From Escherichia phage vB_EcoM_G5211, in sequence record MK327947.1: DNA of 64,000 nucleotides; one strand, 5' to 3'. The position numbers and the translations under genes were made by a program. Positions 15,217-19,998 of the stretch are shown here, in pieces; positions within the stretch are counted from its first letter, which is position 1, and every line of letters starts with the position of its first letter. The notes under the pieces were generated by a model. It was given only the letters and a program-made list of their open reading frames with translations, searched no databases and had not been told where the DNA came from.

Positions 15217-17268
15217 TTACATTTTAAATTTATCTGGCATTGCGTCTACAGATACCAGATCAGCGATAAGCTGACGTAGAGTTGCCTTATCTGCTTTCTT
15301 ACGTTCGGTTTTAGCTTCGCTAATGAAGCTGGAGAAAGACAGGTCAGAAGCAGGTTTAATAACACCTTCACGGATGAATGCATCACCGTCCGCGATCATC
15401 TCGCCAGATTCTTGTAATGCTGCCAGTTCATTTTTGTTCATAATATGTGCCTCAATGTAATAAGTTTCTTGTGAATCCGTCGATGCCGTAGCACGAGTTA
15501 CCGTATCAAAGGATAACACAACACCGCGAGGAAGTAAAATCTCGCATTCTTTGTAAGCAAATGCTTTGTTACCTACTGGCAATACAGGGATGTTTTCCGC
15601 GCCAGCAATGGAGAAAGCAACATTAGCGCCACCTTCACCGCGAGAGCCAGCCATAGAATCAACACCAGCAACGGCACTAGCCACGTTTGCATTCCAGCCG
15701 CCAAAAATGTTAGGTGCAAGGGAAGTGCTCACATAGTTTTTAAAGTAAAACGCTTTTTGCTTACGTGCAGTTTCCCACATTTGCGACCGGAAGTCCATAC
15801 CACGATACAGAATAGTACCCGGATCAAGTTTAACGCCATAGTTGGAGAAGGCATTATCCAGTGCATCGCACATCTTGACCAATTCTTCTGGATCTGCGAT
15901 GCCTTCAAACTCTTCCAGCTTACGGTCGGTTAGGAAGTTGTTCATATTGATGTATGCTGCATCGGCATATTCGCTCAACACAAAACCTTCCGCGCCCGGC
16001 AGATCAAGATCAATATCTGCCATCATTTCACCCATGTTGCTAGCAATTGCTTCAAACATACCGGAAGCAACATTACGTAGGGCATCGGTTTTAATCTGGG
16101 TGATGTGACTACGCAGCATTTCAGCTTTTACATCTGCTGGCATAGACTGGTCTACTCGATCCATTGCCAGGGCGGTGATCTTGTTTTCGAATACTTCCTC
16201 GCTCATGATTTCTTTTAAGCGTTTGATTGATGCTGCGATAACTTCCGCAGACAATGGATCATATTGATCCTGAACTTTTACCAGTTCGCTTACTGCGTAT
16301 TTTGCATCGGCTTCGCTTTCAAAAATAGTACGCATGAAACCATAGCGAGTGATAATATCACTTGTCCAGTCATTCAGAGAACGGGCGGTTGAACGTTCTA
16401 AGGCTTGACGATCAATCAGAGTATTAAACTGTTTCTTAGGTTCGGCTTCGGTGATATCTTCTTCCGGTTTAAGATTAATTTTTTCTGGATGATTCACATA
16501 GTCGCTGTTATAGGTCGCTTGAGTTTTCAGCATTTCTTCTTTAGTCAAACGAGATTTAGCCGCTACGCGTTGTTCTGCTTCCGCGTTTCGTTCTTCTTCT
16601 GACACAAGACTAGCCGCATATGCCTCATCTTTAGTCAGAGATTCACCAGTAGCCTTAGATACCCAGCGATCACCTAAATCACTTTCTACTTTAGTGAACA
16701 AGGATTCATCAAGTTTAATCCCTTTAATCTTATCAATCGCCATCCCGCGACGCTTGACAACAACTAAAGCGATCTTTTTGCTGGTCATTACTTCCTGCTG
16801 GAATACTTCAAACTTCGGTGTACGACGCACCAAACGCTCTATAACGCGCTTAACCAGTTCGGTCTTACCTTTCATGCGGGATACGTTAAAACGGAACATA
16901 ACAGCGTCTAATTGCGCTTTACGGGCTGTTTCCATAACCACATCAAAAGCACTTGACATAACTGCAATCGGGTTATCGCCTAGACCATTTTTAAGCTGTA
17001 CAATACGACCGCTTTTGTTCATTTCGCACAGTACAACATGTGCGGTCTTGTCACCCATACGAATGATTTTAGGTGTTTTGTTGGTGAAGTTACAAAGACG
17101 GACAATCACATCTTTATCGCGTGTCTGTACTGCAAAAAGCTGTTTAGGATTCTGCTTAGGCTTTAAGCACTGTACCGGAGCAATACTGCCAAAGTTTTCT
17201 TCCTCTTCCGTCAACAGCCATTTCTCGAAAGATTCAATCATTAGATCGTCGATTTCTAAGTTAAACAT
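15217..17268 (-). CDS. alt: Alt ADP-ribosyltransferase
   Basis: 683 aa; C-terminal ART motifs YRG, STS, ECEILLPRG; position after gene 54. Confidence 0.8.
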   Translation of the reverse strand: MFNLEIDDLMIESFEKWLLTEEEENFGSIAPVQCLKPKQNPKQLFAVQTRDKDVIVRLCNFTNKTPKIIRMGDKTAHVVLCEMNKSGRIVQLKNGLGDNPIAVMSSAFDVVMETARKAQLDAVMFRFNVSRMKGKTELVKRVIERLVRRTPKFEVFQQEVMTSKKIALVVVKRRGMAIDKIKGIKLDESLFTKVESDLGDRWVSKATGESLTKDEAYAASLVSEEERNAEAEQRVAAKSRLTKEEMLKTQATYNSDYVNHPEKINLKPEEDITEAEPKKQFNTLIDRQALERSTARSLNDWTSDIITRYGFMRTIFESEADAKYAVSELVKVQDQYDPLSAEVIAASIKRLKEIMSEEVFENKITALAMDRVDQSMPADVKAEMLRSHITQIKTDALRNVASGMFEAIASNMGEMMADIDLDLPGAEGFVLSEYADAAYINMNNFLTDRKLEEFEGIADPEELVKMCDALDNAFSNYGVKLDPGTILYRGMDFRSQMWETARKQKAFYFKNYVSTSLAPNIFGGWNANVASAVAGVDSMAGSRGEGGANVAFSIAGAENIPVLPVGNKAFAYKECEILLPRGVVLSFDTVTRATASTDSQETYYIEAHIMNKNELAALQESGEMIADGDAFIREGVIKPASDLSFSSFISEAKTERKKADKATLRQLIADLVSVDAMPDKFKM

Positions 17269-17618: not shown

Positions 17619-17798
17619 TTAGAACATTTTTGAAATTAATTCTGCTTTGATTTCGCAGAGAACATCTAAAGATTTCTCGTCACCCGCTTTTGCTGCTTCT
17701 GCTTGCATTTTTGAAATGGCTTCAATGTCAGTGCAATTATAAGCCGCTTGAACTTTAGCGATTGCGATGATTGCCGATTCGATGGTTAAGTGTTTCAT
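17619..17798 (-). CDS. hypothetical small early protein (59 aa)
   Basis: Hand-translated MKHLTIESAII...; preceded by cassette. Confidence 0.45.
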   Translation of the reverse strand: MKHLTIESAIIAIAKVQAAYNCTDIEAISKMQAEAAKAGDEKSLDVLCEIKAELISKMF

Positions 17799-17868
17799 GT
17801 TTGATTCTCCTTTCGTTTCGGTATGTGTGCATTATAGGGGATCTCCGACCCCCCTGTCAACAACTTTT
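17799..17868 (-). promoter_or_regulatory. early promoter/leader cassette with GC palindrome in spacer
   Basis: TTGACA 17855-17860, TATAAT 17831-17836, palindrome GGGGGGTCGGAGATCCCC between them, GGAGAATC SD. Confidence 0.55.
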
Positions 17869-18422
17869 TAGTTATTTTTTAATTGCTCATCTTGCAATAG
17901 GGCAATCACATGCTGGCGATGTTCTTCCGATTGAGGAACACCGAAAAAGTTTGTTTTGTAGAAATACTCTAATCGGTCTTCTCGTGTGCTCTCTTCCATC
18001 ATGATCGCGGGTAGTCCGAGATTTCGGAAACGTCGCTTTTCTGCTGGCGTAAAATCACTGTAATACAACATAGAATCATCATTACCAGCAATGCTAAACT
18101 CATCATTCATGAAGGAGAATATTGCGTTTAAACGCTGTTTACCGTCCACGATTTCGATCTCATAGCGAGAGCCATCATCAATCTTAGCCATTGCGATAGC
18201 ACCAACCGGAAAATCATTAATCAGGTTTTCGATAAACATACGTTTGTTTTCGGTGTCCCATACCAAAGGACGCTGATAATCTGGGTTCATGTTGATATAG
18301 CCATCTTCTAACCATGCATCATAAACAGAGATGACAAAGTTTTTAGTATTGGTATAGTAACGGCGTTTAGGCGTTAAACGGTTCATGTTATAGTCTCCTG
18401 AATGGATCATCACGTAAATCAA
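17868..18422 (-). CDS. DUF262 (ParB-like / GmrS N-terminal-like) domain protein
   Basis: PDYQRPLVWD ... FPVGAIAMA ... IVDGKQRLNAI matches the DUF262 signature (DGQQR-type motif). Confidence 0.6.
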   Translation of the reverse strand: MIYVMIHSGDYNMNRLTPKRRYYTNTKNFVISVYDAWLEDGYINMNPDYQRPLVWDTENKRMFIENLINDFPVGAIAMAKIDDGSRYEIEIVDGKQRLNAIFSFMNDEFSIAGNDDSMLYYSDFTPAEKRRFRNLGLPAIMMEESTREDRLEYFYKTNFFGVPQSEEHRQHVIALLQDEQLKNN

Positions 18423-18717
18423 TATCTTTTAAGAACTCATCCCATGAATGGCGGATATTGTTCTTAATTCTCCAGATAAGCGCAGGGATTGAACGCTCTC
18501 CCATCTGGAAGTAAGGATCATATGATCCGTATGCCCAATATGCTACTACAATTCCACAGTCAGCGCAATAGTATTCTATTTCACTTGCTGGCGACCAAAG
18601 TCCATCAATATGATCAGTGATCTTGCTTTCGATGTTATGACTATGACAATCAGGGCAACGGATGCAATGACCTTGTTTATCGTAATTTGACGTTAGAGAA
18701 TACTTAAACAATCTCAT
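18388..18717 (-). CDS. zinc-ribbon protein
   Basis: CIRCPDCH ... CADCG cysteine pairs; ATG overlaps upstream stop (TAATG). Confidence 0.5.
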   Translation of the reverse strand: MRLFKYSLTSNYDKQGHCIRCPDCHSHNIESKITDHIDGLWSPASEIEYYCADCGIVVAYWAYGSYDPYFQMGERSIPALIWRIKNNIRHSWDEFLKDIDLRDDPFRRL

Positions 18718-19433
18718 TATAGATCCTTATTGGCTTCAAATACTGCCTTTGCGAATCCTCGCGGGGTAAGTGACCTGATAGTCTTTGTTCTGGTTCCTTT
18801 CCCGCCTAGCTTAGAATGCTGTTTACTGTACCCTTTATTAATCTGCAACGGTTTCTTTTCTGGCATTATAAAGCCTTGTCCGGTCCATAAGCAAGTCTTT
18901 TTCGGGTACATATCACGGGCGGCAATATACTCAGGAAACGTAGGATGCTTATCATCTTCCGGCAAATAACCGCCATATTCCCACGGATGGAACATGTAAT
19001 CAGGCTTACGCCACATACTAGAGATAACGCTTACAGGATTCTCTATCATGTAGGGAACTCCTAGCCATTCACCCAAATAAGCGGTTATTTTAGCTGTCCG
19101 TACATCATGAACTTGAATCAATGGTCCTTGTTCTCGTTTCTTTCGTTCAAAGTGTGCAGCGCCACTAACAGCTAAATTGGTGCACGGTGGGAATGCAAAG
19201 ATAATATCCGGTTTCCCCCATTCAAGGTCCATTGCTCTTTCCAGCCAGTTCAAATCAATCCAGGTGTTTACATAAGTAATGTTTGGATGTTCAAATCTGG
19301 TATTATACTTTTTGTATGTACCGTGGTCGGCGTCATCCGCATTAAAGCAGACTACCTTATGACCTGCTTTAGCCCATTCTAGCCCCATTATCCCCGATCC
19401 GTCAAAGTTGCAGAATATTAATTTTTGTTTCAT
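18717..19433 (-). CDS. compact DNA C5-cytosine methyltransferase-like protein
   Basis: Motif I-like FCNFDGSGIMG, catalytic-type FAFPPC, ENP (ENV-like), C-terminal R-LTPR motif IX-like; only 238 aa. Confidence 0.5.
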   Translation of the reverse strand: MKQKLIFCNFDGSGIMGLEWAKAGHKVVCFNADDADHGTYKKYNTRFEHPNITYVNTWIDLNWLERAMDLEWGKPDIIFAFPPCTNLAVSGAAHFERKKREQGPLIQVHDVRTAKITAYLGEWLGVPYMIENPVSVISSMWRKPDYMFHPWEYGGYLPEDDKHPTFPEYIAARDMYPKKTCLWTGQGFIMPEKKPLQINKGYSKQHSKLGGKGTRTKTIRSLTPRGFAKAVFEANKDL

Positions 19434-19671
19434 ATACCACCCTTTAACCCAGCACAGATTTTAGTCGGTTCTTTACCGTGCCACATTAAGTAAAGTCCGT
19501 TAATGCGACCTTGTTTTGTGTGTGATTCTTTTCTAATCTTCTTATAGTGTCGTGCTTCCTCAACTTATTGTTTAGAATACCAATCATAAAGGAAGAGGCA
19601 CAAAGGCCAACCATTAGCGGCCTTAATGCAGTTATTAAGAAATTCCTTATTGCGTTTAATTAATTTTCTTT

Positions 19672-19923
19672 TCACGCTACCCCCATTGGTTTGATAGTAA
19701 CAGAATCTAAAAGACCTTTGTTAGCCAGTTCGCGGCAAGTTTTCAGATCCGCAACTTCCCAGCCAGCCGCAATCAGGTTATCAATCAGGCTGTTAGCAAC
19801 TTCTTCGCTCATGAAAGAGCACTGTTTGCCGATGGTGTAGCGCACACGCTGTAATTTCAGTTTACGGAAGCCTTTAACGTTCAGGTCTTTAGCGATTTTC
19901 TTTGCGGTTTCGATGTTAGCCAT
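19672..19923 (-). CDS. hypothetical early protein
   Basis: ORF preceded by cassette. Confidence 0.5.
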   Translation of the reverse strand: MANIETAKKIAKDLNVKGFRKLKLQRVRYTIGKQCSFMSEEVANSLIDNLIAAGWEVADLKTCRELANKGLLDSVTIKPMGVA

Positions 19924-19998
19924 TGTTTGATTCTCCTAAGTGGTATCTCGTCTTGATGGTTGTATTGTAGGGGAGTTATCCTCCCCTGTCAACACTTT
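19924..19998 (-). promoter_or_regulatory. early promoter/leader cassette with GC palindrome
   Basis: TTGACA 19987-19992, palindrome GGGGAGGATAACTCCCC, TACAAT, GGAGAATC. Confidence 0.55.

Follow-up and report, generated by a model that had tools for sequence, protein, structure and literature searches.

Background

The closest described counterparts of three adjacent early genes in Escherichia phage vB_EcoM_G5211 (sequence record MK327947.1), which encode a protein resembling C5-cytosine methyltransferases, a small protein with two CxxC motifs and a DUF262 protein, come from distinct systems. The methyltransferase-like protein is related to the 'Dcm' protein of phage K42 (KarlJaspers-type Drexlerviridae), the product of a 711-bp gene that has been identified as the trigger of retron Ec86 and is lost in K42 escaper phages. 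When expressed alone, K42 Dcm raises the 5-methylcytosine (5mC) content of the multicopy single-stranded DNA (msDNA), as measured by liquid chromatography-mass spectrometry, and triggers the retron; the C82A/E128A/K175A/K176A mutant is inactive, and the protein has been modeled on DNMT3A (bioRxiv 10.1101/2023.08.16.553469). DUF262, which has been described as a sensor of modified DNA, is the N-terminal ParB-type nucleoside triphosphatase (NTPase) core of GmrSD, BrxU and SspE, with QRxxxW, DGQQR-type and FxxxNxxG motifs; in NsnA, GmrSD, SspE and DndB, this domain is followed by a helical DNA-binding domain. Nuclease-less DUF262 subunits are known as well, namely Menshen NsnA, PD-T4-2_A and GmrS1 of the two-gene type IV systems; these proteins are 350-400 amino acids (aa) long, contain an extra DNA-binding domain and have ATPase or nuclease partners. 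With respect to gene organization, promoter-early stem-loop (PeSL) cassettes have been described in the T4-like phages RB49 and phi1, along with PeSL-mediated shuffling of genes and ORFans in hyperplastic regions (PMC2839356, PMC4122927).

We analyzed a 64,000-nucleotide stretch of the vB_EcoM_G5211 genome (hereinafter, the window) in which these three genes had been predicted, from the sequence alone, to form a translationally coupled trio that could function as a modification or anti-restriction module. The three genes are:

18717..19433, minus strand: predicted Dcm-like C5-cytosine DNA methyltransferase, 238 aa, with the FDGSG motif I, PPC84 motif IV, E131-N-P motif VI, K178/K179 and the motif IX-like RSLTPRGFA
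18388..18717, minus strand: zinc-ribbon protein, 109 aa, phrog_2993 (5.1e-34), function unknown, with C18 and C21xxC24...C51xxC54; the start overlaps the methylase stop by 1 nucleotide (nt) (TAATG)
17868..18386, minus strand: predicted standalone ParB-type DUF262 (GmrSD_N) core that binds nucleoside triphosphates (NTP), 172 aa, starting at the ATG at 18386, with the motifs YQRPLVW, DGKQR and FYKTNFFGVPQSEEH

All three open reading frames (ORFs) and the motifs originally noticed in them (FDGSG, PPC and ENP in the first, the paired CxxC knuckles in the second, PDYQRPLVW and DGKQRL in the third) are indeed present. We found no evidence that the three genes comprise a three-part module; linkage was found only in loci of the genus Krischvirus. 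It is fairly likely that the five-gene early unit to which they belong is a set of accessory genes, an orphan methylase and independent others, that were assembled in the Krischvirus lineage, and not a single machine.

Genomic context of the three genes

The window derives from a Krischvirus, an RB49/Phi1-like, T4-type coliphage. The 2.35-kb region matched 63 phage records, 56 of them over at least 80% of its length with 97-99% nucleotide identity, and all are Krischvirus (the RB49/Phi1/GEC-3S group of T4-like E. coli phages). About 56 Krischvirus genomes encode the entire trio, intact, with at least 95% protein identity for each gene.

Outside this genus, the association disappears. In 79 loci containing the methylase, drawn from viral contigs of other phage groups, neither the zinc ribbon (tblastn) nor DUF262 (subfamily hidden Markov model) was found within 6 kb. 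In other phages, the ORFs that immediately follow the methylase are diverse, forming 24 unrelated clusters, and include no conserved small partner; the only small zinc-ribbon-like neighbor is the Krischvirus one. In 78 DUF262 loci from other phages, this methylase family and the zinc ribbon were not found within 5 kb, and a Pfam scan of 126 neighboring ORFs (at least 185 aa, within about 3 kb) from 35 non-redundant DUF262 loci detected no methylase among the recurrent families and no conserved nuclease or ATPase. In about 160 loci of other phages, no two of the three genes are adjacent.

The homologs found elsewhere have contexts of their own. The zinc-ribbon homologs in a Nonagvirus and in a Felixounavirus are located among unrelated early genes. 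The DUF262 homolog of phage Lw1 (Pseudotevenvirus) and that of Klebsiella phage phi1_146007 follow a nudix hydrolase cluster and precede an ORF of approximately 310 aa. In a P22-like prophage, the DUF262 homolog lies between recombinase/anti-RecBCD genes (next to abc2) and an Ead/Ea22-like gene. The ORF that follows DUF262 in Lw1 (locus L083, 3504-4463) and in the Klebsiella phage (L084, 3504-4418) encodes a protein of 304-319 aa, overlaps the DUF262 gene by 4 nt, belongs to phrog_10932 and has no Pfam match; it is a possible partner of DUF262 in these lineages and is absent from Krischvirus.

Several points weigh against complete independence of the three genes. The synteny of the trio in about 56 relatives might be taken as one, but it is weak evidence either way and says little because Krischvirus genomes are only 1-3% diverged. 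In one lambdoid prophage (L099, 3911-7251), the DUF262 gene is located between a D12-class N6-adenine (Dam-type) methylase gene and a canonical C5 methylase gene (PF00145, 3e-20). Furthermore, ParB-like activators of phage DNA-modifying enzymes exist (PMC13229309). The prophage locus and these activators leave some room for a functional link between DUF262 and the methylase.

The strongest form of such a link would be a modification module in which the methylase needs the zinc ribbon for recognition of DNA or of its site and the DUF262 protein loads or activates the enzyme on double-stranded DNA in an NTP-dependent manner. The tight packing of the trio and its conservation within the genus, the small size of the recognition region of the methylase, the two methylases flanking the prophage DUF262 gene and the precedent of a ParB-like activator of phage thymine dioxygenases acting on double-stranded DNA are all in line with this scheme. 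Against it stand the activity of K42 Dcm, a member of the same family, when expressed alone, the methylase loci that lack both partners and have diverse neighbors, and the DUF262 loci that lack this methylase and the zinc ribbon and show no enrichment of methylases among their neighbors. The prophage arrangement does not recur among the 16 cluster mates of this locus. Finally, the ParB-like activators of phage 5-methylpyrimidine dioxygenases have canonical ParB N-domains, not DUF262, combined with a C-terminal dimerization domain, and depend on cognate pairing; in contrast, the DUF262-methylase linkage analyzed here is restricted to a single genus, and this methylase family is active without partners. 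We therefore regard the three-part module as unlikely and favor an assembly of accessory genes.

Some additional candidates for a link were examined and rejected. A general DUF262-methylase linkage was discarded given that flanking by two methylases was seen in L099 only (0/16 cluster mates). Fusion of a zinc ribbon with DUF262 was considered for extended DUF262 homologs; eight of the 11 sequences retrieved were read, and these contain no CxxC motifs and are unlike the zinc ribbon. The ORF that precedes DUF262 in Lw1 is, at 109 aa, of the same length as the zinc-ribbon protein but unrelated to it (E-value of 12; phrog_7472). The L099 DUF262 locus is located just upstream of the small terminase gene.

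The zinc-ribbon protein itself contains two CxxC knuckles, C21xxC24 and C51xxC54, and yielded no Pfam zinc-ribbon match above the cut-off, with the TFIIB-type PF08271 scoring 19.8 bits against 29. It may be an independent small early protein.

A compact Dcm-like methyltransferase

The original call of a C5-methyltransferase holds. By family membership, predicted fold and catalytic residues, the 238-aa protein can be confidently named a Dcm-like C5-cytosine DNA methyltransferase, and it is an addition to a known, experimentally anchored family, the one that triggers retron Ec86/Eco1. Among the PHROGs, it belongs to phrog_757 ('DNA methyltransferase'), with an E-value of 3.4e-91 across residues 1-237. 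A database search retrieved 7321 homologs, nearly all of 225-250 aa, and tblastn detected the family in 1585 phage records from several groups of virulent phages, where 'Dcm-like C5 cytosine methyltransferase' is a frequent annotation of the gene. Drexlerviridae (FritzSarasin) and T4-like phages were confirmed as carriers from records or annotations; other carriers appear to include Dhillonvirus, rV5-like, Phapecoctavirus and Klebsiella Webervirus phages. In an alignment of 41 sequences, FDGSG (10-14), P82/P83/C84, E131/N132/P133, K178 and RSLTPRGFA are invariant or nearly so. The AlphaFold model of the protein has a mean predicted local distance difference test score (pLDDT) of 90.4, and in a Foldseek search of the PDB, the top 33 matches are DNMT3A/3B catalytic domains, with E-values down to 2.6e-7. 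The sequence search of the PDB produced no match for the methylase, and the NCBIfam search produced nothing useful.

The comparison with K42 was made through the K42 Dcm ortholog from FritzSarasin (236 aa from an internal ATG), which is 55% identical to the window protein. Cys82, Glu128, Lys175 and Lys176 of the FritzSarasin protein, the residue numbers of which exactly match those mutated in K42 Dcm, correspond to C84, E131, K178 and K179 of the window protein. Thus, the window protein and the K42/KarlJaspers 'Dcm-like' proteins belong to the same family and length class (238 and 236 aa), share the positions of the Cys, Glu and Lys-Lys residues, and have DNMT3A-like predicted folds. They differ in the phage family that carries them, Straboviridae (Krischvirus) versus Drexlerviridae, and in their setting, which in the window is an early operon bounded by PeSL cassettes; furthermore, the window copy is known from its sequence and model. 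Identity to the FritzSarasin protein is about 75% in the stretch between motifs VIII and IX, the sole candidate for a recognition region, which suggests that the two enzymes have the same target site.

The window protein resembles E. coli Dcm and M.EcoRII (PF00145) in its Rossmann-type fold and in the FxGxG, PC and ENV-type motifs, which follow the canonical order of motifs I, IV and VI. It is, however, shorter than these enzymes by about 100-240 aa, and its recognition region is very small.

There are, however, indications that fit less well with site-specific protective methylation. The Pfam profile PF00145 (DNA_methylase) scored 15.2 bits, below the cut-off of 22, and aligned only to residues 10-100 (motifs I-IV). 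That K42 Dcm targets CCWGG was an assumption based on the host Dcm, the sole support being mutation of the msDNA site (bioRxiv 10.1101/2023.08.16.553469). In addition, CCWGG is approximately 2.5-fold under-represented in the window, with 21 sites versus 52.9 +/- 7.1 in dinucleotide-preserving shuffles, all 100 of which contained at least 21; such depletion would be unexpected if methylation gave full protection.

The low Pfam score could also be accommodated if the methylase-like protein did not methylate DNA in this phage, being either inactive or, like DNMT2, active on RNA. In keeping with this alternative, no modified nucleosides were detectable in the virion DNA of TB34 by high-performance liquid chromatography/mass spectrometry (PMC13390438), and TB34 has an intact copy of the methylase gene. 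Similarly, RB49 DNA behaves, and has been treated, as unmodified: HpaII and NheI, which are sensitive to methylation, cleave it (PMC4041780). Conversely, all the catalytic motifs are invariant, the protein is 55% identical to the ortholog of a family member that gives rise to 5mC in DNA, and methylation of a rare site would escape bulk chromatography. Methylation at the 21 CCWGG sites of the window would mark far below 1% of the cytosines; because these sites are so few, site-specific methylation is compatible with the TB34 and RB49 data, which argue against global but not against site-specific cytosine methylation. Altogether, a protein that does not methylate DNA appears highly improbable, and the identification as a DNA methyltransferase is retained, with the activity, site and benefit in this phage inferred. 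A role in phage-borne modification or anti-restriction, which had been suggested for the trio, is reasonable for the methylase alone and does not extend to a module, the three genes being unlinked in the loci from other phages. The scarcity of CCWGG, the Dcm/EcoRII site, is curious in a phage with a Dcm-like methylase.

A standalone DUF262 core

The DUF262 assignment is likewise well founded: the Pfam profile PF03235 (GmrSD_N/DUF262) matches with 72.8 bits against a cut-off of 33.2 (E-value of 5.2e-20). The protein is, however, shorter than the originally described 184 aa. The longer reading (17868-18422) relies on a TTG at 18422 and would overlap the zinc-ribbon gene by 35 nt. In relatives, the annotated start is the ATG at 18386, which yields a protein of 172 aa; this ATG is preceded by GGAG 9 nt upstream and is located one base past the zinc-ribbon TAA (TAAcATG).

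A word-indexed protein search with this sequence retrieved nine relatives only, so that an exhaustive search was needed. The latter yielded 6356 DUF262 homologs, the closest of which either are standalone proteins of 160-190 aa or, in about half of the cases, contain approximately 270 aa including an N-terminal extension of about 120 aa. In 39 standalone relatives, YQRxxVW, DGKQR and FxxxNxxGVPQSxEH are conserved; in the alignment, the key residues of the window protein are the invariant Y37/Q38/R39/W43, together with D81/G82/Q84/R85 and F142/N146/G149. The structural model (pLDDT of 95.6) has the fold of the ParB/Srx N-domain and matches ParB, PadC, Noc, BrxU and sulfiredoxin; the sequence search of the PDB gave chance matches only. 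The standalone core is present in 319 phage records, as an early gene in T4-like, P22/lambda-like and jumbo phages. A sister group of proteins of approximately 260-330 aa (P0147, P0152, P0156, P0160, P0170, P0175, P0205, P0224) contains the DUF262 core at the C-terminus; the N-terminal extension of these proteins, at least about 120 aa long, includes a conserved beta-rich 'F-x-V-G-D/E-x-V' segment and has no cysteine pairs.

Judging from these sequence and model comparisons, the 172-aa protein is a member of the DUF262 domain family but not a GmrSD-type enzyme. It has the same ParB-type core as GmrSD, BrxU and SspE, but no nuclease: Pfam detects no further domain, such as DUF1524/HNH, and the protein ends at residue 172. 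In the model, only two helices follow the core, so that the helical DNA-binding domain associated with ParB-type cores is missing as well. There is no adjacent GmrD gene, the downstream sequence consisting of a promoter and a 59-aa ORF. Because the nuclease, the middle DNA-binding domain and a GmrD-like neighbor are all lacking, this protein alone cannot be a restriction enzyme.

The best PADLOC matches of the DUF262 protein are sensor subunits, Menshen NsnA (1.1e-20, covering positions 48-188 of the 385 in the profile) and PD-T4-2_A (3.7e-12), which are nuclease-less as well. These matches, the description of DUF262 as a sensor of modified DNA and the presence of homologs in prophages would be consistent with a phage-carried sensor directed against competing phages or the host genome, one that recognizes modified DNA, e.g. 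the glucosylated hydroxymethylcytosine of T-even phages, and recruits a nuclease encoded elsewhere. Unlike NsnA, PD-T4-2_A and GmrS1, however, the 172-aa protein lacks the additional DNA-binding domain, and no conserved nuclease or ATPase gene adjoins it, which makes a role as a sensor very improbable.

Another possibility is that the DUF262 protein is a mimic without a nuclease that co-assembles with, titrates or poisons the host GmrSD/BrxU, SspE or Menshen NsnA, and thus shields phage DNA containing 5mC. In this 'modify and shield' scheme, the gene would be carried beside that of the methylase because 5mC exposes the phage to such enzymes. The complete core lacking an effector would suit such a function, as would the location of the gene under an early promoter. 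Counter-defense is plausible because BrxU also cuts DNA containing 5-methyldeoxycytidine, because a GmrS-like protein lacking a nuclease is combined with a GmrSD protein in natural type IV systems, so that hetero-assemblies of DUF262 proteins are possible, and because anti-RecBCD genes adjoin the homologs in prophages, as in the early accessory region of the P22-like prophage where the homolog is next to abc2. There is no direct evidence of shielding, though, and homologs are present in many phages that have no C5 methylase gene nearby. Moreover, TB34 DNA, with no detectable modification, is not cut by BrxU (PMC13390438), so that there may be little to shield, and the strict conservation of the NTP-binding motifs suggests an enzymatic or switch function over passive mimicry. 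Such a shielding mechanism is, in our estimate, improbable; if it operates, it would be the first function assigned to several hundred standalone phage DUF262 genes. The initial suggestion of a decoy for host defenses that contain DUF262 drew no support from the analysis, which did not argue against it either.

The best guess appears to be that the DUF262 core is an NTP-dependent switch or dimerization protein and not a partner of the methylase. The standalone phage DUF262 proteins, in which the NTP-binding motifs are strictly conserved and an effector is lacking, are the only part of this locus that merits follow-up.

Proposed functions of the accessory genes

Under the scenario of independent accessory genes, the methylase would be an orphan, compact, DNMT3-like enzyme that depends on S-adenosylmethionine, has a small recognition region and represents a widespread phage 'Dcm-like' family. 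The enzyme, which would be produced early, most likely methylates a short sequence in the host DNA and in the phage DNA as it replicates. This sequence is probably CCWGG, the target suggested for the K42 relative. Marking of CCWGG would protect the phage from restriction enzymes that cleave there, an advantage above all in hosts that lack dcm, such as E. coli B, at the cost of making the phage detectable by retron Ec86/Eco1. The zinc-ribbon and DUF262 genes would be independent passengers on the same early transcript, and the DUF262 core might act alone, as a ParB-type NTP-dependent switch or dimerization protein, in host takeover or counter-defense. Two predictions follow, namely, that RB49-like phages are sensed by retron Ec86/Eco1, which is present in BL21, and that these phages may be protected against CCWGG-type restriction in dcm-negative hosts.

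The early transcription unit and its surroundings

The three genes are the last in a transcription unit that contains these additional features:

19964..19992, minus strand: early promoter cassette of the PeSL type that heads the unit; sigma-70-type TTGACA-17-TACAAT with an internal GGGGAGG...CTCCCC stem; the annotation of GEC-3S includes a promoter at the corresponding position
19672..19923, minus strand: first gene, 83 aa, phrog_14908, function unknown (ORF list and PHROGs)
19430..19675, minus strand: 81-codon gene, phrog_7065, interrupted; overlaps each neighbor by 4 nt, with a TAA at codon 37 (19565-19567)
17831..17860, minus strand: next early promoter cassette; TTGACA-18-TATAAT (12/12) with an internal GGGGGGTC...GATCCCC stem; the annotation of GEC-3S includes a promoter at this position as well

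The order of the elements is promoter, 83-aa gene, broken 81-codon gene, methylase, zinc ribbon, DUF262 and the next promoter, which closes the unit and drives the following 59-aa gene. The unit is delimited as five genes because consensus promoters are found at 19992-19964 and 17860-17831, and no further cassette-type promoter was found between these two.

The genes in the unit show the signs of translational coupling, TAATG at 18717 and TAAcATG at 18386-18390, as well as ATGA overlaps at both ends of the 81-codon gene in relatives. The 1-nt TAATG overlap that had been proposed for both junctions of the trio was found at the methylase/zinc-ribbon junction and not at the second junction, where the start is the ATG at 18386. 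Because start/stop overlaps of 1 or 4 nt are common among neighboring genes throughout the region, this coupling is generic and does not single out the trio.

In annotated relatives, the region is located between the gene for the Alt ADP-ribosyltransferase and the DNA ligase gene; in the window, an Alt-like ADP-ribosyltransferase gene (15217-17268, minus strand) lies just downstream of the five-gene unit. The alt-to-ligase stretch of Krischvirus, about 8 kb, contains some 30 small early genes with interspersed sigma-70-type promoters, whereas in T4 this interval contains alt.1 alone, a single small ORF, and thus there is no T4 counterpart at this position, as initially proposed. The comparison of this interval between Krischvirus and T4 provides a clear example of a hyperplastic region. 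Like the regions reported in RB49 and phi1, this variable region contains PeSL cassettes, two of which delimit the unit; the difference is that most cassettes in those regions flank one or two ORFans, compared to five genes here.

The interval 19434-19671, which had been described as a leader of about 240 nt devoid of an early promoter, is a broken gene (pseudogene) and not a regulatory peculiarity. The 81-codon ORF is intact in GEC-3S, TB34, SAP, MIZ6 and a Krischvirus contig from IMG/VR (L003); in the window, a single TCA to TAA change at codon 37 truncates it, and the remainder is still in frame. The TAA could be a natural mutation or a sequencing error. Neither this 'promoter-less gap' nor the three-gene system should be carried forward as a finding. 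The nonsense change takes away the upstream translational coupling of the methylase gene.

Phages SAP and TB34, which are reported to be 99.96% identical, show different cytosine modification, and no genetic clue to this difference was found; the DNA of SAP has the same modifications as that of a Tequatrovirus from the same collection but is a poorer substrate for cleavage by BrxU (PMC13390438). Directly downstream of its DUF262 gene, SAP has a 79-bp tandem duplication that includes the promoter/stem-loop cassette and the 3' end of the DUF262 gene (locus L085, about 1700-1850). This duplication is absent from TB34 (L002) and from the corresponding part of the window (17780-17900), and it is the sole difference between SAP and TB34 in this region. 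As a cause of the difference in modification, the duplication was set aside, given that none of the three proteins is altered.

For the 83-aa product of the first gene (19672-19923), the PADLOC search gave a weak match (2.6e-5) to positions 722-785, at the C-terminus, of RT_UG35, a defense-associated reverse transcriptase; this match could reflect a shared small domain or chance similarity.

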